DNA of 63,378 bases, counting the filler, from Hausera hauseri (Eukaryota): NCBI GenBank assembly GCA_046269625.1. It is 12 parts of 12 records of this genome, joined end to end, with 100 filler letters (N's around TTAATTAATTAA, not from the genome) between each part and the next. Parts side by side here need not be neighbours in the genome. Positions count along the whole stretch, not along the records: positions 37,412 to 41,982 come from JBJURY010523348.1; 11 more parts are not named here. One strand, 5' to 3'. The position numbers and the translations under genes were made by a program. Below the pieces are notes generated by a model that was not told the origin of the DNA, searched no databases, and saw nothing but the letters and a program-made list of their open reading frames with translations. This document shows positions 26,101-61,171 of the stretch, piece by piece (positions within the stretch are counted from its first letter, which is position 1; each line of letters starts with the position of its first letter).

Positions 26101-26599
26101 TAGTATCGTTTCCGGTGAAACAGACAGCTTTTTTCTTGAGATAAAAAACATCAATCAAGACCAGCTGCCCCGAAAAATGACATCAGATGGATTACTGGAC
26201 ATGTCCAACTATCCACAGAACCATCCACTGTACAGCAGCACGATAACAAACAAAATCGGCTGCTTCAAGGACGAAAGTGAAGTCTGGATTCAATACAGGG
26301 AATAGATATTTTTGCGCCCAAAGTGCTGCAGTCTTCTGATGGACTATGGGCCGAAAATGCAGGCAAAAGGCATCTAGCCGAAACAGATGGAAATAAATCA
26401 CGGTGATTATCTCCGCGTCTATGATAGACAAGAAGAAAAAGGTGAAAATGCTGTTGTGTCTCAAACGACCATGCGATCGATTGAACATCAGCTGTATACT
26501 GTCACAAATAAAAAGGTTGCTTTGTCATGAAACGATGACAAGAAAAAGTCGGTGGGGCAGAATAAGAGTTGGGCGTACGGACATTGGCATTTGGATTAA
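23150..26599 (+). pseudogene. Polinton pPolB copy A (many stops and frameshifts, internal deletion near 25078)
   Basis: YVIYVDIEAIL (ExoI), YLKLDVYLLADVFQAFR, IRGGM, LLYIDINNLYGW, YYKLKNYSLYG, SGETDSFFL, IGCFKDE, AYGHW terminus. Confidence 0.93.
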
Positions 26600-26845
26600 A
26601 ACACGCGCACACACAGGTGAAATCGGTGCAGACAGATCAATTGACTATGATATTTTTCTGTTGTGTTTTATAAATAATGTATATTGTTCATTGTTTTGCC
26701 TTTTGTTTTATTATTTTATTATCATTTAATGTACCTTTACATTTAACCTAATGTGAGGAGAAACAATATGAAAAACAAACAAACAAAACCAATAAAATTT
26801 ATTAATCATCATAAGCTAAAATCAAGAAATAAAGTAAGTCAAATC

Positions 26846-27075
26846 AGCGTAAACTTTCACACTTCTATATTGGTGATTTAACACCGTGCAGATCCTTTTA
26901 TCCTTTCAACTTCAATTCTAGATAGCTTTTAGCTCCATCCGGTGGCAAAACTGCTTTTGCTGTTGCTGCTGCAGTTTCTCCGCCATGTGAACTGACAATT
27001 TTCGATATATTTCCTTTGAGAAAAATCGACGATGTATCTCAGATATGGTTACTAAACGCCAAATCACTGTCAACT
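26846..27075 (-). pseudogene. 3' part of the conserved Polinton ORF convergent with PolB (copy A)
   Basis: Homologous to 31765-31968 and 52530-52790 (DLAFSNHI.DTSSIFLKGNISKIV...). Confidence 0.6.
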
Positions 27076-27200
27076 NNNNNNNNNNNNNNNNNNNNNNNNN
27101 NNNNNNNNNNNNNNNNNNNTTAATTAATTAANNNNNNNNNNNNNNNNNNNNNNNNNNNNNNNNNNNNNNNNNNNNCAAGTCCAATGAAAAAATTAATAAG

Positions 27201-27401
27201 TCATTGTTGTTGTTGTCGTTTTTGTCTCATTTTTTCCGCGGTGCGTTTTACGAACAGAGATCTGACTACCAATTCCATATATTCTCGCTTGCTCACTATT
27301 CTTGTTTTTGTGAGTTTACATAAAAACTGTACATAAAACACGTGTACTGTCATTATGTCGTCGGTCAATTTCTGAATCTCACTTTCAATGTATTTTTCCA
27401 T
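27201..27401 (-). CDS. Small Polinton ORF divergent from PolB (copy B)
   Basis: MEKYIESEIQKLTDDIM..., homologous to 48142-48417 in the same position. Confidence 0.6.
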   Translation of the reverse strand: MEKYIESEIQKLTDDIMTVHVFYVQFLCKLTKTRIVSKREYMELVVRSLFVKRTAEKMRQKRQQQQ

Positions 27402-27528
27402 ATGATTAGTAGTAGTAGTAGAAGTATGGGGAACAAACGTTTATAACAGAGTAGAGGTTATGTTTAATGTTTAATTTTATGCGCTTATTTTATTTTTAAT
27501 TTTAAATTGTGTTAATTGTTTAAATTTA

Positions 27529-30500
27529 GAAATGTAAGCAATATCCCATGTACTGCGTTTGGCGTATACATGTAGAGGAGAAGGAAGATCAATGCCATCA
27601 AAAGATTGCAAAATATTACAAAATTAGTCCGGACACGTATGTGTGTCCAACGTGTGATGTTCCAACCCGCTCTCTGTACCCCGACTTTTATGATATGCAC
27701 AAACACCATCTCGATCCGTTCACGCGGCCCAAGAAGATGATGCATGCGCGTTGTCCCACATACTTACATTGCTGTAGTAATAAAGTGCACAACGTTAATG
27801 GTTGTCATAGTACAATGGAGCAGTACTATGGCCTAACCACAACGCTGCACAATAAACGGGTATACGTTTGTCCCGGTTGATCAATAGTTGAAGCTCAAAT
27901 CAACTATTAACAATTTTATAATCTGCACAAGGACCACTTAAACCAGTTTAAGCAGTCGAAGAAACAAATATTTATGGACAGAAGAAGCAGAAAAAACATT
28001 CTGTCAACAACAACAACCAGTAGGAAACGTCAGACCTCAACAAGTCTTGACGACTTAATCAGAAACAGTACCCAGCACAGCAACAGCAGGAACAGCATCA
28101 ACAAGAACAGGAGGCCAGTATTCCCAACATTACCGTCAAGTACGATCTGAACAGATCGTACGTGGACATGAAGGTGGATATGTCGGCAGAAACAGCAACG
28201 CAACTGAATGATGTATCCGCTCATGTGCGTAACCGGTTAGAAACAGAGGTGATCAAATTCCAACAACACCACCACTGAAAAGTGCAATATTATGCACTTG
28301 CAGAATTTGAAAATTTGGAAGGTGACAGGAAACAATGGTACTTGTTACATCGAGCCGTACCGTATTCCGAAGATTTTATTGCCGACGCAGGCGAAAAGGT
28401 CGAGGAGAAAATCGCCAACTACACTGAAAAGACTAGTGTATGGCGAATTATACGAATGGGCACTCTCGGCTTTATCATAATAAAGTCGAGTAATATGATA
28501 TATTTGTCTGGACGATCATTCATACCGACACCTGCAGCTATGAAGCAGTGTCTGGCGGTAGTGAGTGTAAAATATACCAACGATGAATACTGTTTTATTT
28601 ACAGTATTCTCGCGGTATTGAAATATGACGAAGCAGACAGATATAGTGCATCTTGTCCAAAACAGTATCAGAAATATTTTTCCGAATTGGATTTTGATGA
28701 AAGTTGGATGCCGATGAAACTGAAATCCATCCTGGCTTTTGAATGGCGTAATCCGACACTGGCAATCAACGTGTTCCGGTACAATACAATCGTAGAAACA
28801 CCGGCGGATCAAGAAATTTACAAAAAGCCTCATGTGGATATAATCTATCGTAGTCGGAACCCAAATGGCTGCCGCTCAGTAAATTTGTTGCAACTGAAAC
28901 GAAAAGAAAGTACCATTACGTTGCAGTGACAAATCTGGACAGACTACTGAACATAGAGCATGACCATTTCCTACAAAAACGGATACAGTGTAAATAGTGT
29001 CCTGTACGTCTTCATGGATTCAGGTCGGAAACAACATTGGAGAAACATGTGACTCTGTGCAGACAAAATTCATTGGTAACCACAATGTATGTCATGCCCG
29101 TCAAAAAAAACTCAGTTTCACAGATTGGTAAAAAACAGACAGTCCGGCATATGTGGTATATGCCGATATTAAGGCAATTCTACCACGGCACAACGTGTAT
29201 GATCAAAAACACGTTGGTATGTTGATTGTCCTAATAAAAGCGGACGGTCAGCCGAAGTATTACGCCTTTCACGGCTGGACCTGTGTGCGTGATTTCCTGC
29301 AGCGTGTGGAAACGACAGTAAAAACGGAAATCGCACCGTGGTATCACAATAACAGCACAAAACCCCTAATTTGGACAGATGAAGATGAAAGCCTGACGTT
29401 TGCAGCCACCGATGAATGTTACCTGTGCCATCACAAAATATTACCGGAACAACTCGTACCGGATCACGACAATTTTACCGGGCGATATCTAGGAGCAACA
29501 TGCAACGCATGCAATTTGGCATGACGTGTGCGGCCATTCCTGCCGCTGATATTTCATAACTTCCGGGGTTATGATTGTCACCAAATTCTGAAATGGGCCA
29601 TAAACGTATTTCCGCACTGGGAGAAATCCATAAGCCCAACAATTATGGAGAAGTACCTGTCCCTATCGGCCCGCATAAATCGGTTTCAGGTACGGTTGCT
29701 TGGCTCATTGCAGTTCCTCAATGAGTCTCTAGCAAAGCTCGTAAATGCCTTGTCGGATGTGCCTCTAACACTGACGCAGTTCCTCACACATATTGCACGC
29801 AGCAAAGGCATATTCCCGTATGACTTTACCGTGTCATATGAGCGACGCAGGACAACAGAGGAATTACCGCCGCGATGGACAGGTACCGCAGAAGATGAAT
29901 ATCAGAGAGCACAGGAATTTCGGACAGAGCTCGGTTGTAGAAACATGTTGTATTACATGTTTTAGTATCTAAAGCTCGATGTGTACCTATTAGCCGATGT
30001 GTTTCAGACCTTTCGGGCTAAAGCGTTGGATGAAGATAGGTTGGAACCGCTGAACTTTTACTCAATACCGGGAATAAGTTGGGCATCGGCACTAATGTCA
30101 CTGGATCGGGACATTGAGCTGCTACAAGACCCGGAAAAGTACCGACTGTTTGACGTTGGCATTCGTGGCGGCATGACATTTGTCAACAAGAATCACGTAA
30201 CCAGTGAATACGATGATACAACGTCAATGTTGTACATCGATATTAATAACCTGTACGGCTGGGTGCTTTCGCAACCCTTGCCATACGGTTCATTTGAATG
30301 GATAATGGACAAACAAGAACTGGATATATTGCTGGACAGTCTGCCAGCAGCAAAAACGGCAGAAAGCAGCTCAGTCGGCTACCTAATGGAAGTGGGTCTC
30401 GTGGACTTTCTGGATGAACTGCCGGTCGCACCAATTAGCCAATGTTTACCCGGCGGCTCAAAAGTAAAGAAACTGCTCATGACACATGAAACCAAATCGA

Positions 30501-31480
30501 ATTACGTGGTTCATTGGAGTCTTCTTTAGTTTTACATGCAGCTTGGTGTACGCGTCACACAGCTGCATCGTGCAATACGCTTCAATCAGGCGCCGATATT
30601 CAAGGTGCACATTGATGGAAATTTTGGAAAACGAGCTGCAGCTTGTACAAAGTTCGAAAAGGATTATTACAAGCTCAAAAACAATTCACTGTACGGGAAA
30701 ACAGTGGAAAATCTGTAGAAAAGGCTTAATTTGCGCCTGTGCAACAACGAAAAACGACCGGTTACGTACACCAGCAAGGCTCAGTTCAGGCGATCAATGC
30801 ACATTGCCGATGGATTGGTCGACATGCTTCTAAACCGGGATGAAGTCGTACTGGACCGGCCAAGCTACATGGGACAAATGGTATTTATCCTGAGCAAGTT
30901 GAGAATGTAAGAGCTCCGGTATCGCTACTTGGTACGTTACCGGCAAATATTCGGCGCCGGCGGCAATGGCTGCGAGATCAGTGTCGTTGCCTGCGACACA
31001 GACAGCTTCTTCCTTGAGCTAAAATACATCAATCGAGACCAGCTGTTTGGATAAATAATATCAGATGGACTACTGGACACGTCCAACTACCCAGCGGACC
31101 AACCACTGTACAGCAGTGCGATAACGAACAAAATCGGCTGCTTCAAGGATGAAAGTGAAGGCCGGGTTCAGTACAGGGAATGGATATTTTTGCGACCAAA
31201 GTGTTACAGACTTCTGACAGACTGTGGGCCGAAAATGCAAACAAAAGGCATCCAGCTAAAACAGACGGAAATAAATCACGGTGATTATCGCCGTGTCTAT
31301 GATAGACAAAAAAACGGAGAAGGAGGAAAGGCTGTTGTGTCTCAAACGACCATACGATCGATTGAACACCAGCTGCATACCATCACAATTAAAAAGGTTG
31401 CTTTGTCATGCAACGATGACAAGCGTAAGTGGGTGGGGCGAAATAAGAGTTGGGCGTACGGACATTGGTGTTTGAAATAA
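27529..31480 (+). pseudogene. Polinton pPolB copy B (near full length; HNH/EndoVII-insert type)
   Basis: Cys/His repeats, poly-Q, GRSFIPTP...NDEYCFIYSIL, VYADIKA, CYLC...DHDNFTGRYLGATCNACNL, FHNFRGYD, KGIFPYD, YIDINNLYG, KLKNNSLYGKT, CDTDSFF, LRPKCY, DDKR...AYGHW. Confidence 0.95.
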
Positions 31481-31764
31481 CACATGTTCAGTAACAAAAC
31501 AGTTTAGTCAGTAAAAAGATGCAATTCAGACCAGCCAGATCATTGACATTTGTAATCTTTGTTTGTTTTACATTCATCTATTGTGCATGTGATCAATAAC
31601 GTATTTGTACGCTATTTTTTGTGTTCTATTTATAACAAGGAAATGGGGCTTAAGTTGGGTTATCGAAAAAAAATCTCATTACTCAAAATCTCAAATACTT
31701 TTCACAACACAAAAACTCAAATAAATTTTATTACAAATCAAACAAAAAACACCAAAAATTAAAG

Positions 31765-32284
31765 TCAGTTTATTAGGGTAAACTTCTCCAACTTCCACCT
31801 TGGCGATGTAATACCACACAGTTCCTTATATCCTTTCAGCTTCAATGTCAGGTATCCTTTTAGCCCTTCCGTTGACAAAACTGCTGTTTGTCCATTTGCA
31901 CGCACAATTTTCGCCATGTTGCCTTTAAGGAAAAGCGAGGATGTGTCACGAATATCATTGGACAACATTAAATCATTGTCAACTTCATCGTTTTCTCCAA
32001 TGCATCCAAGTCACTGTCACCTATTTTCTTTGCCAACAGGCCATATTTTACCTGCTTCATTTTGATCGGTGTTGATAATTGCACTACAGTGGGGGTTCGC
32101 AGGAAATGTAGATTGTACCAGTTATACACTCTGGACTGTCTGAGGGAATACGGGCCGTACTTGGACTCACTGTTCCTTTCTAAATACATATTAAGCATAA
32201 AAAGGAAAAATGAAATGGTCTTACTGCAACCTGTCACAATTGAACTGTCGTTGTTGTAGATGCTGTTTTGTTGTGCAGACATTT
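31765..32284 (-). pseudogene. Conserved Polinton ORF convergent with PolB, function unknown
   Basis: Two frameshifted segments (31968-32348 and 31765-31968); the C-terminal half is present downstream of all three PolB copies. Confidence 0.6.
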
Positions 32285-32776
32285 TAGAGACAAAGTGAAA
32301 TGAAAAGACATCCATATTTATATCAACTTTTGTTTTCATTGTAAACAAGACATTTACTTTGTAAGTATTTTGTCATATCACAACAAAGATATGTCTCATT
32401 ACAATGATACATACACTAGTTTTGAACTATTCAATTGACCAATACGAACCTTGTTTACAGAAAGAAGAAACAGATGAATACATCTATTTGCATGAAATAT
32501 GGTCAATACAAAGCCGTATACATTTTTTGTAAGCACAATTCGGTCCATGATCACGATATGGGCATATAGTATTGTCAGGTACCATCGCCAGCGAGCTTTT
32601 TGATGTTGATGTTGAATACGTCGTCATTCGCAACTCGGGAAACTGTGAATGGAGTTGTGTAAACTTTCGCCCGTCANNNNNNNNNNNNNNNNNNNNNNNN
32701 NNNNNNNNNNNNNNNNNNNNTTAATTAATTAANNNNNNNNNNNNNNNNNNNNNNNNNNNNNNNNNNNNNNNNNNNN

Positions 32777-33728: not shown

Positions 33729-34549
33729 AAATAAAAAAATTATAATATTACTTTGTACAATATTTTAAGTAAGCGATTTTGAAAAAAATATTTCATATAA
33801 ATCTTTCAGCATTTTTTCGGGGAAACAAAATTCTGTTATTGATCTTTTAAATAAATATATTCATTTCGAGATCAACTGCAATTGTTTTAATAATGATAAA
33901 TAAATGTCTTAACGTTTTGTATTAAGAATGAAAATAAAACAAATCTCTGATTTGATGTGGACGGATACAATTTCGTAGATTAGAGATACCGAATTGTGGA
34001 AAACAAAATATACAGAGAAATTTTATTTCGGATAGTGAACAAAAAGAAATCTCTGGATTGTAACTTGAATGAATCTTGTTACATTATTGTTGAAGAGGAA
34101 CACTTTTTGGCTTGGTTCGGCGATTGGTAAAATATGAAATGGACTTGAAAGGAACCGGTAGCTCAATAATACGATTCTATGACTATTTGATAAATTGAAG
34201 TGATGCATTTCCCCATCAGCAGCAGAATATCTCATACGAGCAATGGGGAGAGATAACCGAACTATGAAGTCTAAGATTTCTGTTTATAATCCTGTAGTTT
34301 AGAAGGTTTCGAAAATACTTTTTATCTTTTCAAGTAATTAATAGTATTTTCGTTAGTGTTTCTATATTTGTATATCACAAATCCCTCATGTAAGGCATCT
34401 CACACGGAATCATTCAACTCGAATTTCTGACCATATAATGGAGATAAAATTAGTCACAATACGATGTTGAAATGCAATCATTTTTCTTAACGGAAAAAGT
34501 CAAATTTTGCAATAATGTTTGTTTAAAAATAAGAGCTTAATGTTTTAAA

Positions 34550-34792
34550 GAGAAACTGTCAAATCTCAAATACTTTGTTGTCGATGCCGGTGCAATCGGC
34601 TGCGAACATTTGAAAAATGTTTCCATGATGGGAATCGGTAGTCGACCCAAAGGACGAATTTCCGTGACTGACGTGGACAGCATTGAAAAGTCGAATTTGA
34701 ATCGACAGTTTTTATTCCGCCCTCAGGACATTCAGAAAATGAAATCAGAAGTCGCCACTAAAACTGTCAAAACTATGAATTTAGAGATCAAT
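34550..34792 (+). pseudogene. UBA1: Ubiquitin-activating enzyme E1 adenylation-domain fragment
   Basis: [16 protein letters not shown]...[31 protein letters not shown] (GAGAIGCE changed to DAGAIGCE). Confidence 0.88.
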
Positions 34793-34990
34793 CCTTTTTG
34801 GGATTTTGTGGGCGAAGCTTATATTAATCATTCTGGTATAATTAATTCGAAAATGCGTACTACTGCTAATGCAGTTGAAGGAACCCACATTTCAGATTTT
34901 CCTGCTTTTGAACACTTCTCTAAAGATTCAGATGAAGTTACTGATTACGAAGGAGATAGAAGTTTAGATGCTTTCAAAAAGTTTCTTGAC
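34793..34990 (+). pseudogene. Protein disulfide isomerase C-terminal thioredoxin-domain fragment, in frame with the UBA1 piece
   Basis: [10 protein letters not shown]...[10 protein letters not shown]...FP...F...[15 protein letters not shown] resembles PDI PIWDKLGE.Y...KMDSTANEVE...FPTLKFF...DYNGERTLDGFKKFL; CGHC absent. Confidence 0.75.
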
Positions 34991-35249
34991 GTGAAAGCAA
35001 TCGAATTGATTGCAAAAAGGAGCGTTTTGGGTCTTACCACACCTGCGTCCCGGTTCACTGATGGAGTTAAACTTGTCTAGACAATTGGGTCCCGTAGGGG
35101 CAGAACCACGTTTTTAGCGTCCCACTCAACAGCTACAAGACACGAGACAAAATATGTGGGGCTACCACACTACCTATCCTGTTGCTTATTACCGTCATTT
35201 TTTATCTACCTTTTTGTAAATAATAAATTAATACATACCGCACATATAA

Positions 35250-35608
35250 CACAATGTATCGACACAATACAATTATATGACCTCATTCAAGTTATTTCAA
35301 GAATATCAAGAGCAGGTTGAAAAGCAATATAAGAAAGCAAAAAGCATGATTTAGAACAAGGGGATTGGGTTTACATACATTGCCGAGTAGCCAAGAAAGG
35401 GACGTCGTTAAAATTAACTCGTATTGGCAGAGGGCCGTACGAAATTACTAAAATTATGCCAACAACAGCGCACATTAACAAGCATGGGGGAGAAGAAGTC
35501 GCGTTAGTACAGAGAGTCGTTAAGACAGATATACGGCCCAATAAACGTTATAACCTACATCAACGAAAAATAAAAACTTCCTCAATAATCTCTAAACAGA
35601 TATCGTAT
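35250..35608 (+). mobile_element. Gypsy integrase C-terminal (GPY) domain
   Basis: DLEQGDWVYIH...KKGTSLKLTRIGRGPYEITKIM...RYNLHQR; GPY codons at 35432-35440. Confidence 0.8.
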
Positions 35609-36877
35609 ATGCAGATAGTCTTGGCGCTGTCCCTAATTGTTTCATATATTCAGAAAGGTAATTCCGAGCTCTCCAAAGAAGATGCAGAAAAACAAAAGGA
35701 TATACAAAATTTAAAATCAATAAAAGCTTACGGTGCATATTGGAAAAAGCCATGTATTTGGGTTAAAGCAGACGGCCCTGTTAAAGACCATGTAAAATTA
35801 CGAATATTGTTCATAGACTTAGATAAAAATTTCCCACATGGATTTCAAAGGAAGTGTTGTATGTTAAATTATGGACGAACATATACATACGAACTGCAAA
35901 TGACCTACTATAATATGCGTGGAATTCAAGTTCATATACCTACAGGGCTCAATATAGTCATGCCGAAACAGAATGCAACGAGTCAAGCTAAGACGAATGA
36001 AATAATCCGAAGTACCGATCCGAATATACGAATACTAGAGGAGAATATTAAAAGGATCTCAGTAAATAAGGATAAACAATAAATTCAAATAAACGCTAGA
36101 ACAGGACTAACTTCTAGACAAGAAGTCGCAGTCGTTTTCGAAGCAGTAAGAAGTAAACCATGAAAATAGAATATTGCTTTGTCCGTCATGGTGTGCAACA
36201 CCAGTGTTGTAAATTGCCAGTAAACCAAGAATTCAGAATAAGATTTGATCTATACCAAGTACGGCCCAATAAAGCAAGCATACAGTTGCGAACTTATTAC
36301 CCAGAGAATAGAATATGGAGGATTACAATGGAGATGACAACCAGAAGCCAAACTACTCGAGTTAGTACCGTTACAGAAACCATTACACCGGGAAGAACGC
36401 CTAAAAGAGAACTAGAAAGTATACCTATTAAATATTCGGCATATCGATCTAAAATTGTGTTCTGTGTAGAAGAGAAAATAAATTACGATATACACGTAAA
36501 CTGATGAACTCAAAAGTACTTACCAGACAGAATGCAATTTGTTAAAACCACAGTCCGATTATATAATACAAGTATATGCAAAGGATAAACAAAATCAAGC
36601 ATTTACGTTATGTACCTTAAATGAAATTCGTGCAGAATCACATGTACACAAAACCATAGAGGATGAAATGACCACTCCATCCACCATACAAAAATCCATG
36701 GAATTAACAAATCTATCGATCTTATGGATTATTGGACTATCAGCGTTTGTTCACGTTGTGTTAATTGCGATTTTTGGATTAGTTACCAAAAATTGCTATT
36801 ATAAGCGTCACAAAATCGAAGCGACAGAATTAAGGGTAATGGAGACCAAAGACAAAACCTATGATGAAATAACCTAA
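35609..36877 (+). pseudogene. Env-position type I membrane protein fused to integrase (one stop, two frameshifts)
   Basis: Signal-like MQIVLALSLIVSY, Cys-containing ectodomain with Thr-rich spacers, FN3-like LKPQSDYIIQVYAK, TM helix ILWIIGLSAFVHVVLIAIFGLV, tail ending TYDEIT. Confidence 0.6.
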
Positions 36878-36991
36878 CAACTACAGATCGGGTTATTCTA
36901 TCATCTAACAAAGAATTGGTTTTATTTTAAAACAATACTTTGTTATAGGATTAATCGTTATTGTTTATTTTTTAAAGCGGTAAGTATTACA

Positions 36992-37311
36992 ATGACAACC
37001 AGAACCGACAACGAGCGACGTAGTATCGATAAATTCTTCCAGAAATGCATCACCGTACTTATTCCCCAATCAAAATATATTTACTGACAAATCAATAACG
37101 AGTTATACAAAAATCCCACGTGGAGTATAATCAAAAAAGTGAAATCCGCAATAATCTAAGAGGGACGACTGAAGAAGACCGAATCATCTATCTCTATGCC
37201 ATGAGTGACGATAAAGACGCCAAGTCGTATTCGCTGAACCAAGTGGCTAAAATTGATCCGGTATATCATCAGAATATATACATTCACCTCGCGAATGGCG
37301 AACTCTCTTAC
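36992..37311 (+). pseudogene. Additional accessory ORF downstream of the env-like gene, runs into the gap
   Basis: ATG at 36992 (MTTRTDNERRSIDKFFQKC...) and an open frame 37120-37311; unrecognised. Confidence 0.3.
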
Positions 37312-37411: not shown

Positions 37412-37979
37412 AATTTTCTCTTTTGTACTGTGTTTGAAATCCAATATGCATTTTCTTCCGCTGTATTATCCGTTGAGTAAATTACCTTAACCAACACTGT
37501 TGCGTTATAATTTGTATCTTTGTCGAGATCAGGTCTTTTAACAAATGTATCTATGAACGGTAGATCACTGACATCAAGATTTAATAAATAAGGGCAAGTG
37601 GCACGCAATTTCTTATGTGCCGTACTTGGTCGATTCTTCGTTTGTTCGTATTGAAATTCTCCTTGGCAATAAATGCATCTAATTTGTCCTGTTATGGTTC
37701 TGAAGAATCCGGTTCTGGCATATGCTTGCGCTAGTTCTTCCGGAATAGGCAAGTTTGGATATTTTAGGAACGATATTGTTCTGTTTTGAGCATCTCTCAT
37801 GGAGTTATCCAGTACTATGGCTCTAGAGAAGCTTATCAATTTTTTAATAAATGATGCTGGTCCAAATTGTCTGTTCTGGTAATGTAATAGGTGCTGTGCG
37901 ATATTAAATTGTACTGGCTTGACATATTCATACTGCTTTGGTGTTCGTAATTTGTATTCTTTAACTTTTGTCATTTCGA
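37412..37979 (-). CDS. BIR-domain (inhibitor-of-apoptosis-like) protein, cassette 5, 3' end in the gap
   Basis: RTISF...YARTGFF.....IRCIYC...AHKKLRATCPYL is the BIR CX2C-H-C signature. Acceptor TTTTAG at 37980. Confidence 0.85.
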
Positions 37980-38029
37980 CTAAAATATAATATATCCAAT
38001 AACGTCATCAAATTTACGCAAACATTTAT

Positions 38030-38337
38030 TTATAAATTTTTTACAGTAAAATAAGCATTTTTATATCTAAATAAGGTATTGTTAGTACGACATTTCGGGC
38101 ATGAAGTCGCGACCGCAAACCACTATTTTATACATCGTCGACAAAATTGGTGTTTGCATGTGGTTAATTATATTGGTTCTCTTGAATATTCATTCAAACA
38201 GATAGCACACTCCTTTCCCAGACAGACAAAAGTTCCCTTTGGATCATATATGGAATAGCTGTTTGTCGTTGTAGTATAACAGAATGCCGACAATCCGTGG
38301 TCCAATATATTCGCTCTATCCAACCCATAAGGAGATC
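38030..38337 (-). pseudogene. RING-HC protein, cassette 4 (two internal stops; absent from the ORF track)
   Basis: KECAICLNEYSREPI*LTTCKHQFCRRCIK*WFAVATSCPKCR; AG acceptor at 38338; stop overlaps AATAAA. Confidence 0.8.
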
Positions 38338-38382
38338 CTTAATAAGTCAAAATGAACGACTTATAATTAATTTTATTAACAA

Positions 38383-38791
38383 TCAATAATCTAAAAGTGG
38401 TTTTGGCTGTGGATTTCTCCACTGTTCCGGCCAACTGCCGTCATCTTCATCAATCACCAATACTACGGATGGCCGATTATCAATATTTAAATATGTAATC
38501 ACTCCTTCTGCAACATAAAAGTCTACTGATTCAAGGCAGTAAGGACACTGTTGACAGGATCCCAAATACTCCAAAATACACGGTTGACAGAAACATGACG
38601 ACATGATAGGACAACCAAATTATCTGTCACTAATTTAAGGCACACCCAGCAAAATGTGCAAGCTCGTCGACAACAAGGGCAGTTACTTTGTTCGTTTAAC
38701 CAAGTATTAATGCAGGACTGGCAATATGTATGTCCACATGGTAACATTGTCCTTTCATTCGGCATTCCCTCGAGACAGATAGGACAGATAT
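38383..38791 (-). pseudogene. Tandem double RING-HC protein, cassette 3 (one frameshift near 38595)
   Basis: CPICLEGMPNERTMLPCGHTYCQSCINTWLNEQSNCPCCR, then CWVCLKLVTDNLVVLSCRH/FCQPCILEYLGSCQQCPYC, acidic tail. Confidence 0.85.
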
Positions 38792-38839
38792 CTATAACCC
38801 ACAAAACTAAATTTTACTAGCTCCAACAATCATTTATTA

Positions 38840-39069
38840 TTATATATCAAAATCGATCAATTTATTAATTTCATTTAAATCATCCTCCGTCAATGTACAC
38901 ATAGGGCATAATAAGTAGCACTCTTCATTCATTGTAGCTACTTCTAGTTTAACTTCTTCTCCACAACCATTACACTGAAACTGATGATCCTCCTGTTCCA
39001 TTTCTGTAATGAATTTACACAATGGGCAGGATTTTTCTTTATCGGAGAATTTCCAGCATATAACACATC
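38840..39069 (-). CDS. Small CxxC zinc-ribbon protein, cassette 2
   Basis: CVIC...CPLC...CNGC...CPMC with an acidic tail; TTTTAG acceptor at 39070; AATAAA directly after the stop. Confidence 0.65.
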
Positions 39070-39232
39070 CTAAAAGCAACATAGTTAAATCCGATTACTC
39101 AATTCTATTTAATTTCTTCATATTCTTAATGCCATTTACTAATCTGATACCCAAATTATTCTTTTCTTTTACTTGCGTTATTCAATTAATTTCCCTATTC
39201 CAAGTCAATTCACAACATTTATTAATCAACTA

Positions 39233-39522
39233 TCATAAGGGCATATAAACCAGCCCATTAGGTCCAAACACATACAAGTCATTTGGATCCTCCTCTATTT
39301 CAGTCTCTTGTTCATTTTCCTCTTCATCTGGGATCACCACTACGGTGGTTCCCCAACACTGGTATGATGTGATTTTTCTTCTACAGAACGGGCACGACTG
39401 GTTTTTTGCTAACCATCTATCTGCGCAGTGGGTGCACATTATATGAGTGCATCTGAATAATGCATATTTCCTTCCTAGTGCTCCAAAACATATATCGCAC
39501 TGTGCTGATTCATATTGATCAC
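39233..39522 (-). CDS. RING-HC protein with acidic tail, cassette 1 (no in-frame ATG before the RING)
   Basis: QCDICFGALGRKYALFRCTHIMCTHCADRWLAKNQSCPFCRR...DEEENEQETEIEED. Confidence 0.8.
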
Positions 39523-39686
39523 CTCAAATTATCTGGGATAATAAATTTATTATTATTCTAAGTGCATTTTACATTAGAGTGAAATTTGCTTACTCAACTA
39601 TTCGTTAATTTTGGCATTTTTAAGGATATATCCTAATATTTTGTTCTCTAAATCGGAGTTCTTCGTGTTCTTCACATCATTGTGCT

Positions 39687-39703
39687 CCTCACTCGGGGCA
39701 CCA
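39687..39703 (-). promoter_or_regulatory. Retrotransposon primer-binding site complementary to elongator tRNA-Met
   Basis: Minus-strand TGGTGCCCCGAGTGAGG is the complement of ...CCTCACTCGGGGCA-CCA, the 3' end of animal elongator tRNA-Met. It includes the post-transcriptionally added CCA and lies a few nt after ...CTTAACA and an AATAAA. Confidence 0.8.
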
Positions 39704-39710
39704 GTTTATA

Positions 39711-41982
39711 TGTTAAGTACAGGGGTCGTTTATAGACCTTTATTGCGTACCAACATATAAAATTTGGACTTTACTTAGTTGTAAAGTCATCTTATTCTTC
39801 CTTTCCTCTACTTGATTTCAACCTGAATCGTGAGTTCTTAATGTTTTGGTCATTCGATTTATCATAAAGAGTAAACAGTTGCTTGTAATTTTTACCCTTT
39901 TCATACCTTCTTCATAGGGTATTCGATTACTCATTTTTTAAACATAGATGACATTTACTTCTGATTGATGTTAGAAAAAACGATCTGTATTATTAAAATT
40001 AGAACTCAAGTTAACGTTCATAATTACAGAATTCTAGCCAATATCCGCCTTTGTAGTTTGTATCCGATGTAAATAAAAATTTGAAGGAAACCCCATTGAC
40101 CAAAAACAATTTAAGAATAAAAATTTGAAGGAAACCCTATTGATCAAAACAATTTAAGGAAGGATAATAATAATAATCATAGTTTAAAGAAGGTTGTCAT
40201 AAGTAATCGTTTTGTCTATATTATAATACAAATTATATTAAAAGTATATTCGTGATTTTTGAGGTACTTTGACATAGTTGGGCTGATAAAACATAATACT
40301 GTGAAATGCTTAATATCTGTAAGGGAGAACTAAATAAACTCAATACAATAGAATACTCGGTTCTTAGTGAGGGTAATTACATACGATACTAAAATATAAT
40401 TAATATTCACAAGAGGAACTAAATAAATTAATACCTGAGGTTTACCCGAGTAGCGATGTAGACATAGTTTATTGTAAATTATATTAACACTAGTCATGAA
40501 TACACTTTTTAGGAAGATACCTCAAGAATGAGTATAATTTCGAAGAAAAAACATATATAAAAATAGGTTTTTAAGCTCCATAAAGATAATACTTGATTAT
40601 TCACCATATATTAGATCGCTTCGATTAATAGTTCATGGTTTCAGTTCCATATCCACCCTTAGACTAATTTTCTCAAAATCACTATGCGAGTAGTTCCACA
40701 TACCCATTGAATTCTCCGATTTAAAAAATAATAATTCTCAATCGTTCATAACCCAGGATACTTGTCTAAATGCTGAAATAATCTTAAGTACTCAAATGGA
40801 AGGGATCTATGGTCTTCGATACACATTTCTATATACGTACACTTGTCAACTAATATGGTTACAATTTATCAATCTAAACGTAAATATTTATACTTATTGT
40901 AATCAATTTACATTGCATCATCAAATTCATTACACTAATCTAAATTTCATAAGCATTTCATTTAATACTCGACGGGATACGTTAGATGTCCGTCACACAC
41001 TTGTCACTTTAAGGAATTCTGAATCGATATTAATTCATACTTCATTATACGATTCCCGAACATAAAATGCCTATATTCTGACTATCAATTTCAACCGAAT
41101 CCACATTTTTCTCCGAATTATGGACTACCACAATCCTGAACATTTCTAAATTCTACTGGAAATACCAATATAGTAATTAGTTTACTTTCCAACGTATGGA
41201 AATTCATGCACATCACATTTCTTTCCACACGTATCACAACCATTTATTTTTAGAATACATTTATTGAATGACAAAATTTTACAAATATATTAATAAAATA
41301 TTGCAGCCGGTTGATCAATAATAAATCTCATATTTACCATTAAAATTCTCGTAATTCTCCGGGTCCTTAGTCTCTCTCTCGTCAGCTGAACGATTATTGC
41401 CATTCCTGTTAGCCATGGATGTCGAAGAACATTAATTGATCTACTTGGATATAACTTCTAAACAATGTTTTCCAGATTCTTCGGTCGTCTAACTGTTTTG
41501 TAATTCTCAGCGTTTCAGTAAAAAGTTTTGATGGATCGAGCTACGCAATATCAATAAGACGTAGAAACCAAATGGAAATCGAATCAAATTGAAATCGAGT
41601 AATTTAAGTTCAGGTTCAGTTATGTGTTTTAAGTTATTTATGCCAGGTTTATATAGGATTTTCCGCTGCACTTTCTAGAATCATGCGTATTTTCAGAAAT
41701 CATTCGTCCGATTTCCGAAATCACGCACCATTCATTATTCAATGCGTCGCTCGCTATTATTATGCATCGTTTCCTGTTTTCAAAAATCAGTCACCTGGTT
41801 TTCAAATTCACGTCAAAATCACGTATTATAATTTTCACAATCACGCATCAATCATTATTTTTAATAACAGTCGTCCGATTTTCGAAATCAATTTAATGCG
41901 CCCTTTGAAATGAGCTATTCTTTTATTTCGTATTATTTATCTATTTAACTATTCATTCCTCTTGCTCAACCGACCGCTATTG
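39711..41982 (-). mobile_element. Putative long (>2.2 kb) 5' LTR with TATA box and internal short coding exon
   Basis: Ends in ACA just before the PBS; AATAAA near 39740; CCTATATAAA at 41648-41657; exon 41416-41338 (MANRNGNNRSADERETKDPENYENFN, phase-1 donor GTAAAT). The far boundary is not in the contig. Confidence 0.5.
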
Positions 41983-47600: not shown

Positions 47601-48141
47601 CAANNNNNNNNNNNNNNNNNNNNNNNNNNNNNNNNNNNNNNNNNNNNTTAATTAATTAANNNNNNNNNNNNNNNNNNNNNNNNNNNNNNNNNNNNNNNNN
47701 NNNAATCATATTGCAATATTGTTTCAAACAAATTTCATCTGCTGACTGCCACGTAGGAATGTAATCCGTCTGACCACCACCAACACCACTACCAAAATTG
47801 GTCATAAATTGTACTTAACGAGGATTATCGTCCAACGCATAACAATCAGCCATTTATTTATATGTGCAAAAAATCTTACAAAATAAAAATTCCATATCAC
47901 GAGCAACCTGCTTTATATGGCGTAAGTAGAGTTGTCATGCCCTCCAATTCTGCTGGGCAAGTAGGAGTAGCTCTTCAGGAGGCAAATACCGAGCATTGTC
48001 CAAAGGCCGATNNNNNNNNNNAGTATAATCTTATGGGAAAGAAGCACAAGAATTTATACTCCAATGTAGCTTGAACACACACACAAAATAAATTGCGTTA
48101 GTACATAAAAACAAACACGTAGCCAAAAAGTACAAATGTGG

Positions 48142-48417
48142 TTAAATACGGTTAATCAACTTTTTCATTACAATACAAAGCGAAGCCGTAAATATAAGTC
48201 CAATGAGGAAATTAATACGTTGTTGTTGTTTCCGTTTTCGTCTCATTTCATCCTCGATACGTTTTACGAAGAGCGATCTGACTATTAATTCAATGTACTC
48301 TCGCATGCTCATTATTTTAGTTTCTGCGAGCTCATATAAAAACTGTAGATCAAACACATGTCCCGTCATTATATCATCGGTCAATCTTTGAATCTCACTT
48401 TCAATGTACTGCTCCAT
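48142..48417 (-). CDS. Small Polinton ORF with C-terminal hydrophobic helix, divergent from PolB (copy C)
   Basis: MEQYIESEIQRLTDDIM...RRKRKQQQRINFLIGLIFTASLCIVMKK; homologous to 27201-27401. Confidence 0.65.
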   Translation of the reverse strand: MEQYIESEIQRLTDDIMTGHVFDLQFLYELAETKIMSMREYIELIVRSLFVKRIEDEMRRKRKQQQRINFLIGLIFTASLCIVMKKLINRI

Positions 48418-48567
48418 TTGATTAGTAGTAGTAGTAGAAGTATGGGGAACAAATGTTTATAACAGAGTAAGGCAATTTCACGACTATTCGGGTTATATTT
48501 AATGCTTATGTATTTTAATTTATTTATAATTTTAATCTATTTTAAAAGTTAATTTGTTTAAATTTAG

Positions 48568-51500
48568 AAATGCAAGCAATATTCCATGTATTGCCTCTCT
48601 CGTATACATGCGAAGGGGGATCAGTACCATCAGCAGATGGCGAAATATTACAAAATTGGCACGGACACGTATTTGTGTCCAATGTGTAATATTCCAACTT
48701 TATATCCGCACCCCAATTTTATGTGATGCACAAGCATCTTCTCGGACCGTTTACTCTCTCTACGAAGAAGATGATGGTTGAGCATTGACCCACATACCCA
48801 CACTACTGCACTAATAAAGTGCACAACATTAGTGGCTGTCATAGTGCAATGGAGGTGTATTATGGCACCACAACGCTGCACAAAAAGCGGGCCTATGTTT
48901 GTCTCGTTTGTTGTTCTATAGTTGCTGAAATCAACTGTGAACAATTTTATAACCAGCACAAGGACCACTTAAACCAGTTTAAGCGGTCGAAAAAACAACT
49001 AGTTATAAACTCAACTAAAATCAGAAGCAGCAGCAGCATCCCCTCAACAACCAGTAGAAAACGTCAGCCCTCAACAATTCTTGACGACTTAATCAGAAAC
49101 AGTACCGAGCAGCAGCAGCATCAATAACAACAAGAAGAACAGGAGCAACAGGAAGCCAATATTCCAAATATTACAGTCAAATACGATCTGAACAAATCGT
49201 ACGTGGACATAAAAGCGAACATATCGGCGAAATCAACAACGCAATTGAGACATGTCCCTCAAAATGTGCGCAACCGATTGGAATCCGAAGTGGTGAAATT
49301 CAAACACCACCACTGCAAAGTGCAATATTATGCACTTGTGGAATATGAAAATCTGCAGGGTGACAGGGAATCATGATACCTATCACATCAAGCCGAATCG
49401 TATTCCAACGATTTTATTGCCGACGTAGGCGAAAAGCTCGACGAAAAAATCGCCAACTATACCGAAAAGGGTCGTGGCTTTCGAATTGTAAAAATTGTAA
49501 CTCTCGGCTTTATCATAACAAAGTCGTGTTATATAATTTACCTATCCGGGCGATCATTCATACGACACCTGCAGCTCTGAAGCAGTCTCCCATGGTGGTG
49601 AATGTGCAAAACAAGAACGATTAATACTGTTTTCTTTACAGTATTCTGATTGTATTAAAATATGACGAAGTGGACAGAAAATATGCTAATCATCAAAGTC
49701 AGTATCGGCAGTATTTTTCCAAATTGGATTTCGATGAAAGCTGGATGTCGATGAAACTAAAAACCATTCCGACGTTTGAACGGCGTAAGCTGACGCTGTC
49801 AATCAACGTTTTCCGGTAAAACTCAATAGTTGAAATACCGGTAGATGAAGAAATCTATAAGAATCCCCATATGGATATAATCTATGGAACCCGAAATCCA
49901 AACTGACGCCCGGTAAATGTGTTACTGTTGGAGCGGGTGGAAAAGTATCATTATGTGGCCGTGACAAATTTGGATAGATTGCTGAATATAGATCATGATC
50001 AGTTTATCAAAAAACAAATACAATGCAAATGGTGTCCTGTGTGTCTGCACGGCCTCAGATTACAAACTTCATGGGAAAAGCATATGACGTTGTGCAAACA
50101 AAATGCAACAGGAACAACAATGTATGTCATGCCAGTAAATAGGAGCTGAGGTTCCGTGATTGGTAGAAAACTGACTGTCCGGCATACGTTGTATATGCTG
50201 ATATTGAGGCAATCCTACAACAGCACAACGTATATGATCAAAAACATTCCAATTGCCGTTGGCATGCTGGTTGTCCCAATAAAAGCTGCAGGTCAACCGC
50301 AGTATTACGTTTTTCATGGCTGAAACTGCGTATGCGATTTCCTGCATCAGTTGAAAACGATAGTAGAAACGGAAGTCGCAACCTAGTACAATAGAATTAG
50401 CAATAAACCCTTGATGTGGACAGATAAATATAAACCAATGATGATTGCAGCCACCGATAAATGTTACCTATGCCACAAAATATTACCGTTCAATGCACTG
50501 GAACAACTCATACCGGATCACGATAATTTTACCCGTCGATACTTGGGAGCATCATGCAATTCATGCAATTTGGCAAGGCGTGTGCGCCAATTCGTAGCTG
50601 TAATTTATCATAACTTCAGGGGTTATGATTGTCACCATATTTTGAAATGGGCAATAAACGGATTTTCGCATTGGGAACTGTCCATAATTCCGACTACGAT
50701 GGAGAAATACCTGTCACTGTTTGTTCGTATAAACCGATTCCAGGCAGGCTTCCTCGACTCATTGCAATTTCTCAATGAATTATTGGCAAAGCTGGTAAAT
50801 GCCTTGGTAGATGTGCCGCTAACAATGACTCAGTTCTCTGTACACATTGTGTGCAACAAAGGCATATTCCAGTATAACTTTGCAATATCGTACGAGCTGC
50901 TCCAGATGACAGACGAATTACCATCGCAATGGACCGGTATCACAGAAGAAGAATATCACAAAGCACAATTGTTTTGGGCAGAGCTCGGTTGCGGAAACCT
51001 ATTGGAGTACATGCCTCAGTATCTGAAATCGGACGTAGACCTGTTAGCCTGTGTTGCAGACATTTCGAGCTAAAGCATTGGCAGAAGATATGCTGGAGTC
51101 ACTCAACTTCTATTCAATAGCCGGAATGAGTTAAGCATCAGCTCTGATGTCACTGGATCAAAATATCGAACTGCTGAAAGACCCAGAAATGTACCGAATG
51201 TTTGATGTTGGTATTCGTGGCGGCATGACATTTGTCAACAAGCACCATGTAACCAGTGATCATATCACATCACTGTTGTATATCGATATTAATAACCTGT
51301 ACGGTTGGGCACTTTCACAACCCTTGCTGTACGGTTCATTCGAATGGATAGTCGACAAACAGGATTAGGACAGAATACTGGAAAATCTGCCGACAGCAGA
51401 CACGACAGCAGAAAACAGCTCAATCGAATACTTGATGGAGGTCGATCTCCTGGTACCGAAGGAGTTGCATGACTTTTTGGATGAACTGCCGGTCGCACCA

Positions 51501-52345
51501 ATTAGCCAATGTCCGCCGGGCTTGAATGTGAAGAAGCTGCTTATGAGGCATGAACCCAAGCAAAATTACATAGTTTATTGGCGTCTGTTACAATTTTACA
51601 TGAAGTTAGATATACGGCTACATCGCGCAGTCCGATTTGCTCAGTCTTCCATATTCAAGGCGTACATAAATAGAAATTCGGAAAAAAGAGCTGCAGCTTG
51701 TACAAAGTTAGAAAAGGACTACTACAAGCTGAAAAACAATTCCCTGTACGGAAAATAGTAGAGAATCTGAAAAAGCGGCTCAATGTACGCCTGTATAATA
51801 GCGAAAGTGGGTTGGTTACGTACACGAGAAACATAGTTCAGGCGGTCAATGCACATTGCCGATCGATTGGTTGCCGTGCTTTTAAACAGAGAAGGAGTCG
51901 TACTGGACCGGCCAAGTTATATTGGATAAATGGTATTGGATATGAGCAAGTTGCGAATATATGAGTATCGCGATTTAGCACGTTACCGGCAAATGTTCGG
52001 TGGCGGATGCAAGATCAATATAATTGGCGGTGACATAGACAGTTTTTTTCTGCGGCTGAGAAAAGTCAATCGCAAACAGCTACTGCAGAAAATGCCGTCA
52101 GATAGATTACTGGACACACCCAACTACCCACCGGATCATTCGTTGTACAGCAGGGCTATCACCAACAAAATCGGCTGCTTTAAGGATGAAAGTGAAGGTC
52201 GGGTTTAGTATCGAGAATGGATATTCCTACGCCCAAAGTTCTACAGTCTTTTGACGGACTTTGGTCCGAAAATGCGGGCAAAAAGAGTCCAGCTGAAACA
52301 GACGGAAATCGACCATGGTGATTATCGCCGTGTCTATGAAGAAGA
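48568..52345 (+). pseudogene. Polinton pPolB copy C (decayed, 3' truncated)
   Basis: Same motif series as copy B: DHDNFTRRYLGASCNSCNL, YHNFRGYD, YIDINNLYGWALSQPL, KLKNNSLYGK, GGDIDSFF. Confidence 0.93.
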
Positions 52346-52529
52346 AGGACTATAATCAAAGGCTGCTGTGTTTTGTATAAATAATGCATATTGTTCTTTG
52401 TTTTTGCCTTTTGTTTTATTATCATTAAGTTTATCTATTTAACTTAATGTGAAGAGAAATAATATGAGAAACAAACAAAATCAGCAAAATTTATTAATCT
52501 TCCTAAGCTAAAATCAAAAACAAAGTCAA

Positions 52530-52790
52530 ATCAGCGTAAATTTTTCAAGCTTTCATATTGGTGATTTAACTCCGTGCAGATCCTTTCAACTTCAATGTTA
52601 TATAACCTATAGCTCCTTCCGGTGGAAAAACTGCTTTTACTGCTGCTGCTGCTGTTTCTCCGCCATGTGACCCGACAATTTTTGCCACATTTACTTTGAG
52701 AAAAATCGATGATGTTTCTCGGATATCGTTACTCAACGCCAAATCACTGTCAACTTTTCTAATTGTGTCTTCCGTCTTATCCAATTCATT
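52530..52790 (-). pseudogene. Conserved Polinton ORF convergent with PolB (copy C)
   Basis: DSDLALSNDIRETSSIFLKVNVAKIV...GYITLKLKG. Confidence 0.6.
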
Positions 52791-53399
52791 GTNNNNNNNN
52801 NNNNNNNNNNNNNNNNNNNNNNNNNNNNNNNNNNNNTTAATTAATTAANNNNNNNNNNNNNNNNNNNNNNNNNNNNNNNNNNNNNNNNNNNNAAAATTCT
52901 AAAATCATTTATTTAAACAAACAACCCCTCAAAACTTTTTCATTCACATAAATACGAAACAAAGAAATCTATTTATAAAACTGATCAAAATTAGCCAGTC
53001 TAATCAGCAATATCTATGCATCTCAAATTTAACTGGATTTTTTGTTGTTGCAAGCATGTCGGAATAATTTACTAGATTCTAATTAACAATGTGCCGCAGA
53101 CGATAATCGTATCAATTTCAATTAGTTTGATCGATTCTGAATAGACAGTCTTGATTGTTTGTGTCTGATGATGAATCATTGGGAGAAACAAACGTTGATA
53201 GAAGCAAATTGCAAACGAACTAATACTTCTGAGATAAGAGTAAACTCTACGTCGATATTTTGTTGGTTGAGAAGGAAAATATCCCCAGAAAATAGTTAAT
53301 GACAACAAAACCGCATTTTGAACAGCTAAGTCAGAAATTATTCTCCAATAATTTTGAATCCGGGTGATACTTACATTTGGGGTGTAAGAAAATTAAAAT

Positions 53400-59663: not shown

Positions 59664-59708
59664 TAAACAAACTGCGTCATCATTATCATTATCATCATCA
59701 TCGAGATT

Positions 59709-60791: not shown

Positions 60792-61148
60792 TTCTGAAAT
60801 CGCTTCTATTTACAGTAAAACCAAGCAGGGCGGGGAACTGCCGTATTTCGTCGGTAAACAGTACGGCTCTGGATAGTTGCGTACATTGGCACGCTTAGCA
60901 TTTCCAGTCTTGAAGCGTGTCGGTGCCGTGGCAGCAAAAACGGCACAGGACGTACTATATGAAACAAATCGATTTTACTATCACTGAAGGAACAAGCCTT
61001 GTCCGAAATAAAAAGCGCTGCACCGGGAGTTATTGATTTAGTCAAAAAACAATTCGCTGGCAGTGGCTTGATGGTGAGAAAACGCCGTAAAGCATCATCG
61101 AGTTCATCAGCTATAAACAAACGTCGTCGTTGTACGATTTTCGATTGA
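60784..61148 (+). pseudogene. Small basic Polinton core/membrane-active protein (PW/cupiennin-like)
   Basis: QAGGELPYFVGKQYGSG*LRTLARLAFPVLKRVG...AGSG...RKRRK...TIFD, in the typical position between minor and major capsid genes. Confidence 0.7.
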
Positions 61149-61171
61149 TTAATTGAAAGACATAGAGACAA

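Follow-up and report, generated by a model that had tools for sequence, protein, structure and literature searches.

An array of putative RING and BIR terminal-exon cassettes behind the primer-binding site of a likely LTR element in Hausera hauseri

The window analyzed here is the whole stretch of 63,378 nucleotides, filler included, from Hausera hauseri, and consists of 12 joined contigs. One of them, the array contig (4571 bp, positions 37412-41982), has no DNA likeness beyond chance to the other 11 contigs in the window. Its features lie on the minus strand, where a putative 5′ LTR and a primer-binding site (PBS) are followed, in this order, by a RING cassette, a cassette with four CxxC motifs, a double RING, another RING and a BIR. 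Elsewhere in the window are Maverick-like contigs, an hnRNP U whose best relatives are 39-41% identical, and, in contig 2, apparent introns of ~30-45 nt.

The putative 5′ LTR (39711..41982) is at least 2.27 kb long, its 5′ end being cut at the contig edge. It closes with a terminal CA at 39712-39711, 7 nt ahead of the PBS, a gap that exceeds the usual length. The tRNA-Met PBS (39687..39703) agrees at 16/18 nt with the Met PBS in Table 2 of PMC1084362, and its pattern, with up to three mismatches allowed, has no other match in the window (0.08 expected). In contig alignments, the LTR nucleotides adjoining the PBS are kept alike in diverged copies. The PBS, the LTR-like CA end and a GT at 39593 are all present as the original prediction had described them. 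ARAGORN found no tRNA in the window, and Rfam returned four rows around the PBS, all at chance level. The PBS pattern had no match in the viral collection, where tRNA-tail patterns matched 0, 0 and 16 loci, with a tRNA in 0/16.

The stretch belongs to a repeat family, with 1748 contigs of sequencing run X1 and 197 of run X2 aligning to it, and 1044 of the 1748 X1 contigs are less than 95% alike to it. Judged from these contigs, the family has many copies, in majority below 95%, as an LTR retrotransposon would. The X1 and X2 pieces are themselves contigs, and none of those listed covers the stretch end to end. Summed contig depth varies along the array contig, for example 957 at 39716 against 176 at 39745; it is not a copy number, and the cassettes are not ranked by it. 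Contig joints with sides of 24-32 nt lie at 39676-39688, and the PBS is joined to the first RING across differing sequence in at least six diverged X1 contigs. Matching to other copies yielded a repeat family in which the link between PBS and first RING is kept. In the 4571-bp contig, gag and pol are absent, as are a second LTR, a PPT and a TSD, and neither gag nor PR-RT-RH-IN was found in L001 and L002, two contigs of 1.9-2.9 kb that carry relatives of the IAP. The proposed LTR element stands on its PBS and repeat family, with a second LTR and gag/pol absent from the contig. The predicted place of the array ahead of gag, with gag-pol downstream, is about as probable as a non-autonomous element that has cargo only and is mobilized by a helper.

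Cassette 1 (39233..39532) encodes a RING-HC domain (39499-39380) with an acidic tail and has an AATAAA at 39223. Cassette 3 (38383..38791; acceptor TAG|38791, phase 1; AATAAA 38377) encodes a double RING-HC whose second RING is broken in this copy, with a frameshift near 38590. Cassette 4 (38030..38337; acceptor AAG|38337, phase 1; AATAAA 38030) encodes a RING-HC (38209-38087) with stops near 38170 and 38125, which are private to this copy and absent from overlapping copies; it was read with X at these stops for the Pfam search. Pfam recognizes RING in all three cassettes (E 1e-10 to 2e-13), and cassettes 1, 3a and 4 have the C3HC4 ligand set over Pfam cut-offs. They also retain Ile/Trp/Pro at E2-contact positions, along with the Arg that follows the last Cys. 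As had been claimed, cassettes 1, 3 and 4 have no in-frame ATG ahead of their zinc ligands. Cassette 2 (38840..39069; acceptor TTTTAG|39069, phase 1, open; AATAAA 38838) has four CxxC motifs and is unclassified: Pfam gives nothing over cut-off, and the C3HC4 pattern of RING-HC is absent. Its atlas matches are RING-like and mostly from Nucleocytoviricota clusters, with weak scores (<0.9), and its predicted fold is uninformative (mean pLDDT 51). The predicted domains were thus recovered by Pfam as RING in cassettes 1, 3 and 4 and as BIR in cassette 5, the four CxxC motifs of cassette 2 being present with no Pfam match over cut-off.

Judging from its sequence, the copy in this contig is decayed, in agreement with an earlier caveat, as seen in the frameshift of cassette 3 and the stops of cassette 4. 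Among the best 40 of 711 rows, 15 coding differences were listed (4 synonymous, 9 replacements and 2 stops), and these show only the decay of this copy.

Cassette 5 (37412..37979) encodes the N-terminal part of an IAP and is cut by the contig end. It follows the acceptor TTTTAG|37979 in phase 1 and has its own ATG at 37974. Its BIR (37779-37585, CX2CX16HX6C) scores over the Pfam cut-off (E 4.5e-7), as in IAPs, and the ligands C101, C104, H121 and C128 are invariant in seven rows. The predicted fold has a mean pLDDT of 52, with 62-84 in the BIR core. A search for homologs of this cassette by shared words gave 0/17 candidates. The BIR groups with seven IAP relatives, 4/7 of which have a C-terminal RING; the full-length BIR+RING relatives, on other contigs, show 43-49% identity. 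In a quick tree of 79 rows (the first 70 of 150 listed matches and 9 others), this group of eight rows stands apart from the other 71 (SH-aLRT 97). The Trp and acidic residues in the IBM groove of caspase/IBM-binding IAPs are absent from the cassette 5 BIR (YEQTKNRPSTAH against WKPSEDPWEQH in P0159). Without these XIAP-type groove residues, the cassette 5 BIR is doubtful as a caspase inhibitor; of the predicted anti-apoptotic effector, the BIR is there and the XIAP-type groove residues are not. In L001 and L002, the IAP relatives are placed just behind an acceptor-like site, in phase 2 and with their own ATG 16 nt on; in L001, it is a membrane-protein ORF and not a PBS that precedes the IAP on its 5′ side. 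Homology of this membrane ORF to the integrase-fused membrane ORF of contig 7 was rejected, the match being confined to a hydrophobic stretch of 45 aa (E 6e-4), with N-terminal parts that do not match.

Large DNA viruses commonly carry arrays of RING and IAP genes, and the locus might be an endogenous DNA virus or Maverick-like gene cluster, its RING and IAP genes independently initiated and its PBS a chance match or an insertion. The weak, mostly Nucleocytoviricota matches of cassette 2 and the Maverick-like contigs of the window would fit such an origin. However, three cassettes have no ATG, the link between PBS and first RING recurs in diverged copies, and IAP alignment in the viral collection gave a relative in 0/17 candidates. 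For cassette 3, the same collection gave generic RING loci in 5/13 (L003-L007), alike at 30-47% over the domain only. We regard a DNA-virus origin as highly improbable.

As predicted, an AATAAA lies at or near the stop of each complete cassette, starting +9, +1, +5 and -1 nt from it in the four; this 4/4 compares with 20/453 control stops. An AG in phase 1 exists before each of 39522, 39069, 38791, 38337 and 37979. When acceptors are ranked blind to frame, the top AG coincides with the predicted, open phase-1 acceptor in cassettes 2-5 (4/5). In cassette 1, the top acceptor is CAG|39532, in phase 0 with a stop 6 nt on (score 6.0), whereas GAG|39522, in phase 1, scores 0.7. The claim of five same-phase acceptors thus holds for four. 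Four top acceptors would share one phase by chance at ~0.04, and 4/5 would do so at p ~0.14; the acceptor and donor scores use ad hoc weights set after the sequence was seen. Of 172 AATAAA examined in the window, 13 rows combine the signal with a good AG after it and at least 55 codons in a phase-1 frame; five of these rows lie in the array. A 1-nt indel had been offered to explain cassette 1; a diverged copy (X2 record 13) aligns through 39547-39212 with its sole two gaps near 39301-39306, and the indel is therefore unsupported.

The acceptors of cassettes 2-5 score 5.4-7.3, similar to four apparent host acceptors (5.2-7.2), as they would if the cassettes were exons of one host gene or members of a host tandem gene family. 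This origin is very remote, given that a stop with AATAAA closes each of the four complete cassettes, that diverged contigs align to the stretch in very large numbers, and that a PBS lies directly upstream. The gaps from poly(A) signal to next acceptor, 40-154 nt, are operon-like and bring to mind an array resolved by SL trans-splicing, in which a host SL RNA and not a cis leader exon would provide the start codon. In flatworms, the SL has an ATG at its end and is able to provide the start codon (PMC12582326), and the top acceptor of cassette 1 is in phase 0, the phase that such an SL requires. An AUG-ending SL would, however, give phase 0, whereas the top acceptors of cassettes 2-5 are in phase 1, and an ATG is missing from cassettes 3 and 4. 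An SL-resolved operon is accordingly quite improbable.

Some alignment boundaries fall at the same signals. Diverged copies align as far as 39212-39213, just past the AATAAA of cassette 1, or 38025, exactly at that of cassette 4, and the ends of five contig joints fall at 38331-38336, shortly beyond the cassette 4 acceptor. Copies that are ~15% diverged are thus alike through AATAAA and acceptor and different just beyond. The order of cassettes 2-3-4 is kept in two X2 joints of equal depth. These observations bear on passive cargo, that is, an LTR element which captured host RING/IAP 3′ exons, acceptors and poly(A) signals included, and makes no alternative products from them. Captured last exons would themselves bring AG, stop and AATAAA; the cassettes are mutually only 24-37% alike and so need not be designed duplicates; and this copy decays neutrally. 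Against it stand the conservation through AATAAA and acceptor in ~15% diverged copies, the private nature of the cassette 4 stops, and the full-length BIR+RING relatives of the IAP on other contigs. We consider passive cargo unlikely. The PBS match, the repeat family, the poly(A)/acceptor statistics and the signals kept in diverged copies together support, at the level of sequence, an element of LTR type whose RING and BIR cassettes follow acceptors and terminate separately.

The main donor had been placed at the GTAAGC of 39588..39593, which is a weak candidate: its GT is outside the top 14 of 117 GTs by the ad hoc score, in this copy the phase-1 frame of the exon ending there contains no ATG, and the site sits in a stretch that differs between copies (joint 39547-39676). 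The donor 41338|41337, the second option of the original prediction, does better, ranking 2 of 117 by the same score, and the leader is likely an LTR-internal exon ending at 41338. This putative leader coding exon (41338..41416) starts with an ATG at 41416 and, with 26 open codons plus 1 nt, reaches the donor ATG|GTAAAT in phase 1. Open ATGs also follow at 41403 and 41340, and both lead to phase 0; with three open ATGs in phases 1, 0 and 0, the phase-1 fit is not special. Between the donor and the PBS lie 14 acceptor-like AGs scoring at least 4.5, which the model requires to be skipped. A TATA-like box (TATATAAA, 41648..41655) precedes the exon, and two AATAAA (41265 and 41248; 41243..41265), 72-89 nt past the donor, are likely the LTR poly(A) site.

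On balance, we judge it fairly probable that the contig is the 5′ end of a decayed, many-copy LTR retroelement whose leader exon is spliced to one of five separately polyadenylated cassettes. Transcription would start from the TATA box near 41650, and, as foamy viruses do, the element may use U1 bound at the 41337 donor to suppress the poly(A) site that lies 72-89 nt beyond. The donor would then be joined to one acceptor, the AATAAA of that cassette ending the message; for cassette 1, the second leader ATG (41403) could provide entry in phase 0, a weaker site being the alternative. One leader and alternative cassettes that each have their own poly(A) signal could let a single promoter give rise to a set of RING proteins together with an IAP. 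The RING products would be small E3 ligases and the IAP a BIR-RING ligase favoring survival of the element-bearing cell.

That retroelements carry apoptosis and ubiquitin regulators is already known from planarian Burro. Among the motifs of the giant Gypsy-like Burro/GYPSM1 elements are RING-associated (AIR1), BIR, MATH, ankyrin and BCL2-like ones, and in one element of Dugesia tigrina an accessory ORF lies upstream (PMC6431247). Compared by description and not by sequence, their RING and BIR cargo resembles the array. However, the Burro domains lie in or beside a ~4,900-aa polyprotein (PMC6431247), whereas the array has five short, separate cassettes directly behind the PBS. The RING+BIR 'B-IAP' of Burro1 protects stem cells according to a second-hand account (excerpt of PMC13465017), and the full-length relatives of cassette 5 have the same BIR and RING domain types. 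The BIR pattern CX2CX16HX6C is common to cassette 5 and to XIAP, DIAP1 and baculovirus IAPs, and the full-length relatives of cassette 5 end in a C3HC4 RING. The cassette 5 type differs from the XIAP type in having one intact BIR with an apparent degenerate second, and the subgroup of cassette 5 does not have the XIAP-type groove residues.

In foamy viruses, the LTR poly(A) signal comes after the major donor and is suppressed by U1 there (excerpt of PMC3694450). As far as that excerpt goes, the array matches this geometry (41337 to 41265/41248), and foamy and complex retroviruses make accessory proteins from spliced messages, as proposed for the array. Accessory mRNAs of complex retroviruses share a common 3′ LTR poly(A) site and come mostly from near the 3′ end, whereas each array cassette has its own poly(A) signal. 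To our knowledge, complex retroviruses recruit host E3 ligases and do not encode RINGs. Ogre and bdelloid ORF3 elements are Gypsy-type elements that carry extra ORFs, as the array contig does, and bdelloid ORF3s are typically expressed from spliced messages, as an excerpt of PMC5408684 states; that rotifer paper has 0 occurrences of 'RING'. These elements have one or two extra ORFs and no alternative terminal-exon array, and a layout of separate terminal-exon cassettes was not found in literature searches. A complex LTR element of new layout is likely. More tentatively, and short of an even chance, the locus may represent a complex virus-like LTR lineage in which a leader exon encoded in the LTR stays constant while the terminal-exon array behind the PBS is exchangeable, yielding ubiquitin ligases and an IAP from one promoter as a counter-defense toolkit. 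By analogy, and equally tentatively, this arrangement could be viewed as the mirror image of protocadherin-type variable-exon clusters.

If the array works as read, a retroelement expresses its own E3 ligase panel by splice and poly(A) choice, and its genome-length RNA must pass at least five internal poly(A) signals. This would be a new expression strategy for LTR elements, giving them a virus-like toolkit for steering the host cell. The array would also serve as a testable model of the way in which these elements acquire and swap genes for host manipulation, and the substrates of the ligases would point to invertebrate anti-retroelement defenses.

The array lies within one 4571 bp contig (37412-41982) of the window's 12. 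On its minus strand, 7 nt separate a CA at 39712-39711 from the downstream TGGTGCCCCGAGTGAGG (39703-39687), which is identical at 16 of 18 nt to the tRNA-Met PBS tabulated in PMC1084362 and is the sole such match in the window, in line with the original prediction. Five cassettes follow the PBS on the same strand. Pfam matches bear out the predicted RING-HC domains in cassettes 1 (39532-39233), 3 (38791-38383) and 4 (38337-38030) and the BIR in cassette 5 (37979-37412); cassette 2 (39069-38840) has no Pfam match above the cut-off. As had been claimed, an in-frame ATG ahead of the zinc ligands is lacking in cassettes 1, 3 and 4; cassettes 2 and 5 have one; that the five form a DNA-virus cluster is very doubtful. 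The description of the retroelement copy as decaying also stands, with a frameshift near 38590 in cassette 3 and stops near 38170 and 38125 in cassette 4.

Each complete cassette ends, as predicted, in an AATAAA at its stop (starting +9, +1, +5 and -1 nt from it; 4/4, vs 20 of 453 control stops), and in three of the four the signal continues as AATAAATG and then T- and G-rich sequence. Every AG between a domain and the sequence preceding it was scored as an acceptor irrespective of frame, using ad hoc weights fixed after the sequence was seen. On this scale the top AG of cassettes 2-5 (among 11, 4, 8 and 24) is the acceptor originally proposed, open and in phase 1, with scores of 5.4-7.3, similar to the 5.2-7.2 of four apparent host acceptors. 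The claim of five phase-1 acceptors thus holds for these four, but fails for cassette 1, whose top AG (among 8) is CAG/39532, in phase 0 and then a stop, and whose proposed GAG scores 0.7. The 1-nt indel invoked there is unsupported, because the gaps of a diverged copy aligned to it lie only near 39301-39306. Four acceptors in one phase give p ~0.04, or p ~0.14 with cassette 1 as a miss. Among 172 AATAAA in the window, 13 have a good AG and then a phase-1 frame of at least 55 codons, and five of these 13 rows (four acceptors) belong to the array.

The donor first proposed, at 39593, is a weak candidate: it ranks below 14th among the 117 GTs, and its exon lacks an ATG in the required frame. The GT ranked second, ATG/GTAAAT at 41338/41337, closes a 79-nt open exon that begins at ATG 41416, ends in phase 1 and lies ~230 nt downstream of a TATA-like box. 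Two further ATGs downstream of 41416 are also open, in phase 0, which weakens the phase-1 specificity, and 14 acceptor-like AGs between this donor and the PBS also count against specificity. A phase-0 leader ATG could serve cassette 1. An operon resolved by spliced leaders (SLs) would predict phase 0, since flatworm SLs end in ATG (PMC12582326), and is improbable. For the leader exon of a retroelement, a parallel exists in foamy viruses, where U1 suppresses 5' LTR polyadenylation with a donor upstream of the LTR AATAAA (PMC3694450); the same arrangement is found here, with AATAAA at 41265 and 41248, 72-89 nt past the donor, both continued by AATAAATG and T/G-rich sequence. Over these two signals, directly after the donor, lies a short CxxC-x2-C-x2-H frame (41190-41270, minus), possibly a decayed sixth cassette within the putative LTR.

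The feature is real and conserved. Matching contigs number 1748 in sequencing run X1, of which 1044 are <95% alike, and 197 in run X2; that the array is a host gene is scarcely credible. In six X1 contigs, one with an X2 counterpart, RING1 is joined to the PBS side over intervening sequence that differs, and the cassette order 2-3-4 is kept by two X2 joints of equal depth, which are likely one contig. Copy alignments stop at 39212-39213 (cassette 1) and 38025 (cassette 4), just past or at the AATAAA, and five contig joints fall at 38331-38336, immediately beyond the acceptor of cassette 4. That the cassettes are passively captured exons is unlikely. Upstream of the PBS, likeness among copies falls within ~40 nt, resembling an LTR terminus. 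The cassette-4 stops are absent from overlapping copies, and the 15 coding differences in the top 40 of 711 rows (4 synonymous, 9 replacements, 2 stops) fit private decay of this copy.

The protein P0001 aligns to the whole of cassette 5 at 43% (among 266 hits). Together with P0157, P0017 and P0020 it has a BIR and a C-terminal RING, with an apparent second BIR, degenerate, between the two. In a quick tree of 87 columns, one branch (SH-aLRT 97) splits eight rows (the window, P0001, P0157, P0020, P0022, P0012, P0017 and metagenome locus L002) from 71 others. Two of 28 candidate metagenome loci, L001 and L002, hold an IAP relative that has its own ATG and is preceded by an acceptor-like site. 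The ORF upstream of it in L001 shows weak FN3 similarity and probably carries a membrane anchor; no tie to an integrase was found for this ORF on comparison with the window's integrase-fused membrane ORF. An A-rich spacer (L001 1845-2160, with a TA repeat; L002 640-970) parts the membrane-protein ORF from the IAP acceptor, and the two loci are alike there by eye. The Trp and acidic residues of the BIR groove have a role in caspase binding. The window BIR keeps 4/4 zinc ligands and has neither the Trp nor the acidic groove residues of XIAP-type rows; judged from these residues, direct caspase binding is therefore doubtful and ligase-type action via a C-terminal RING more likely.

Elsewhere in the window, a similar unit is found at 711-2298 (minus). 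Its 181-aa ORF, whose stop is overlapped by AATAAA, starts from a phase-1 AAG and is followed by a RING gene that may contain a 45-nt intron and whose ATG 1742 shares the ATCCATGGCT context with leader ATG 41416. Next come AATAAA, a TATA-like box (around 1040) and a terminus similar to the putative LTR end of the array contig. At 35333-37311 (plus), a region with weak Pfam similarity (E 0.12-0.17) to the integrase C terminus shares its reading frame with a signal-like segment and a membrane protein, after which come an acceptor-like site and a short ORF; a second complex LTR element probably has its 3' portion here. A Gypsy-type integrase (Pfam rve) and RT-like pieces lie at 13486-18869 (minus), where an adjoining plus-strand ORF ends in a retroviral-type protease. 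Contigs 23065-32676, 47704-52792 and 57664-63378 are mutually similar (65-81%); we take them to be Maverick/Polinton-like, with pieces presumably related to protein-primed polymerase and, in one, integrase-like and adenain-like ORFs. An hnRNP U-like gene at 6311-12650 (minus) has several breaks and apparent introns of ~30-45 nt, and in a single ORF at 34541-35080 (plus), possibly a chimeric fragment acquired by capture, a ThiF (E1 enzyme) segment is fused with a thioredoxin-like one.

Burro elements encode a giant polyprotein, and their RING-associated, MATH, BIR, ankyrin and BCL2-like motifs lie within it or next to it; an upstream accessory ORF is present in one of these elements (PMC6431247). 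Here, in contrast, separate acceptor-led cassettes lie behind the PBS. The Burro1 RING+BIR protein B-IAP is reported, second-hand in PMC13465017, to protect stem cells; host IAPs with RING are reported absent in sampled flatworms (PMC13159474), and spliced ORF3 messages are noted in PMC5408684. PMC8532177, PMC13238120 and PMC11599104 contributed nothing further. No separately polyadenylated, acceptor-led RING/IAP cassette array behind a PBS was found in the literature covered. Lee et al. (2026) on Burro1 and the first description of Burro, which fall outside that literature, may with their supplements describe spliced B-IAP expression, and if so the array is less new.

The sequence layout and its retention in copies are observed; that the cassettes are transcribed, spliced and polyadenylated and yield active proteins is our prediction. 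On balance it is probable that an LTR promoter would drive the short leader exon, which would be joined to one of several acceptor-stop-AATAAA cassettes, the choice of cassette yielding separate RING, zinc-finger and IAP proteins. The odds are about even between gag-pol lying downstream and an element that carries cargo only. The array is likely to represent a complex LTR retroelement, predicted from sequence, with cargo like that of Burro and expression like that of a complex retrovirus.
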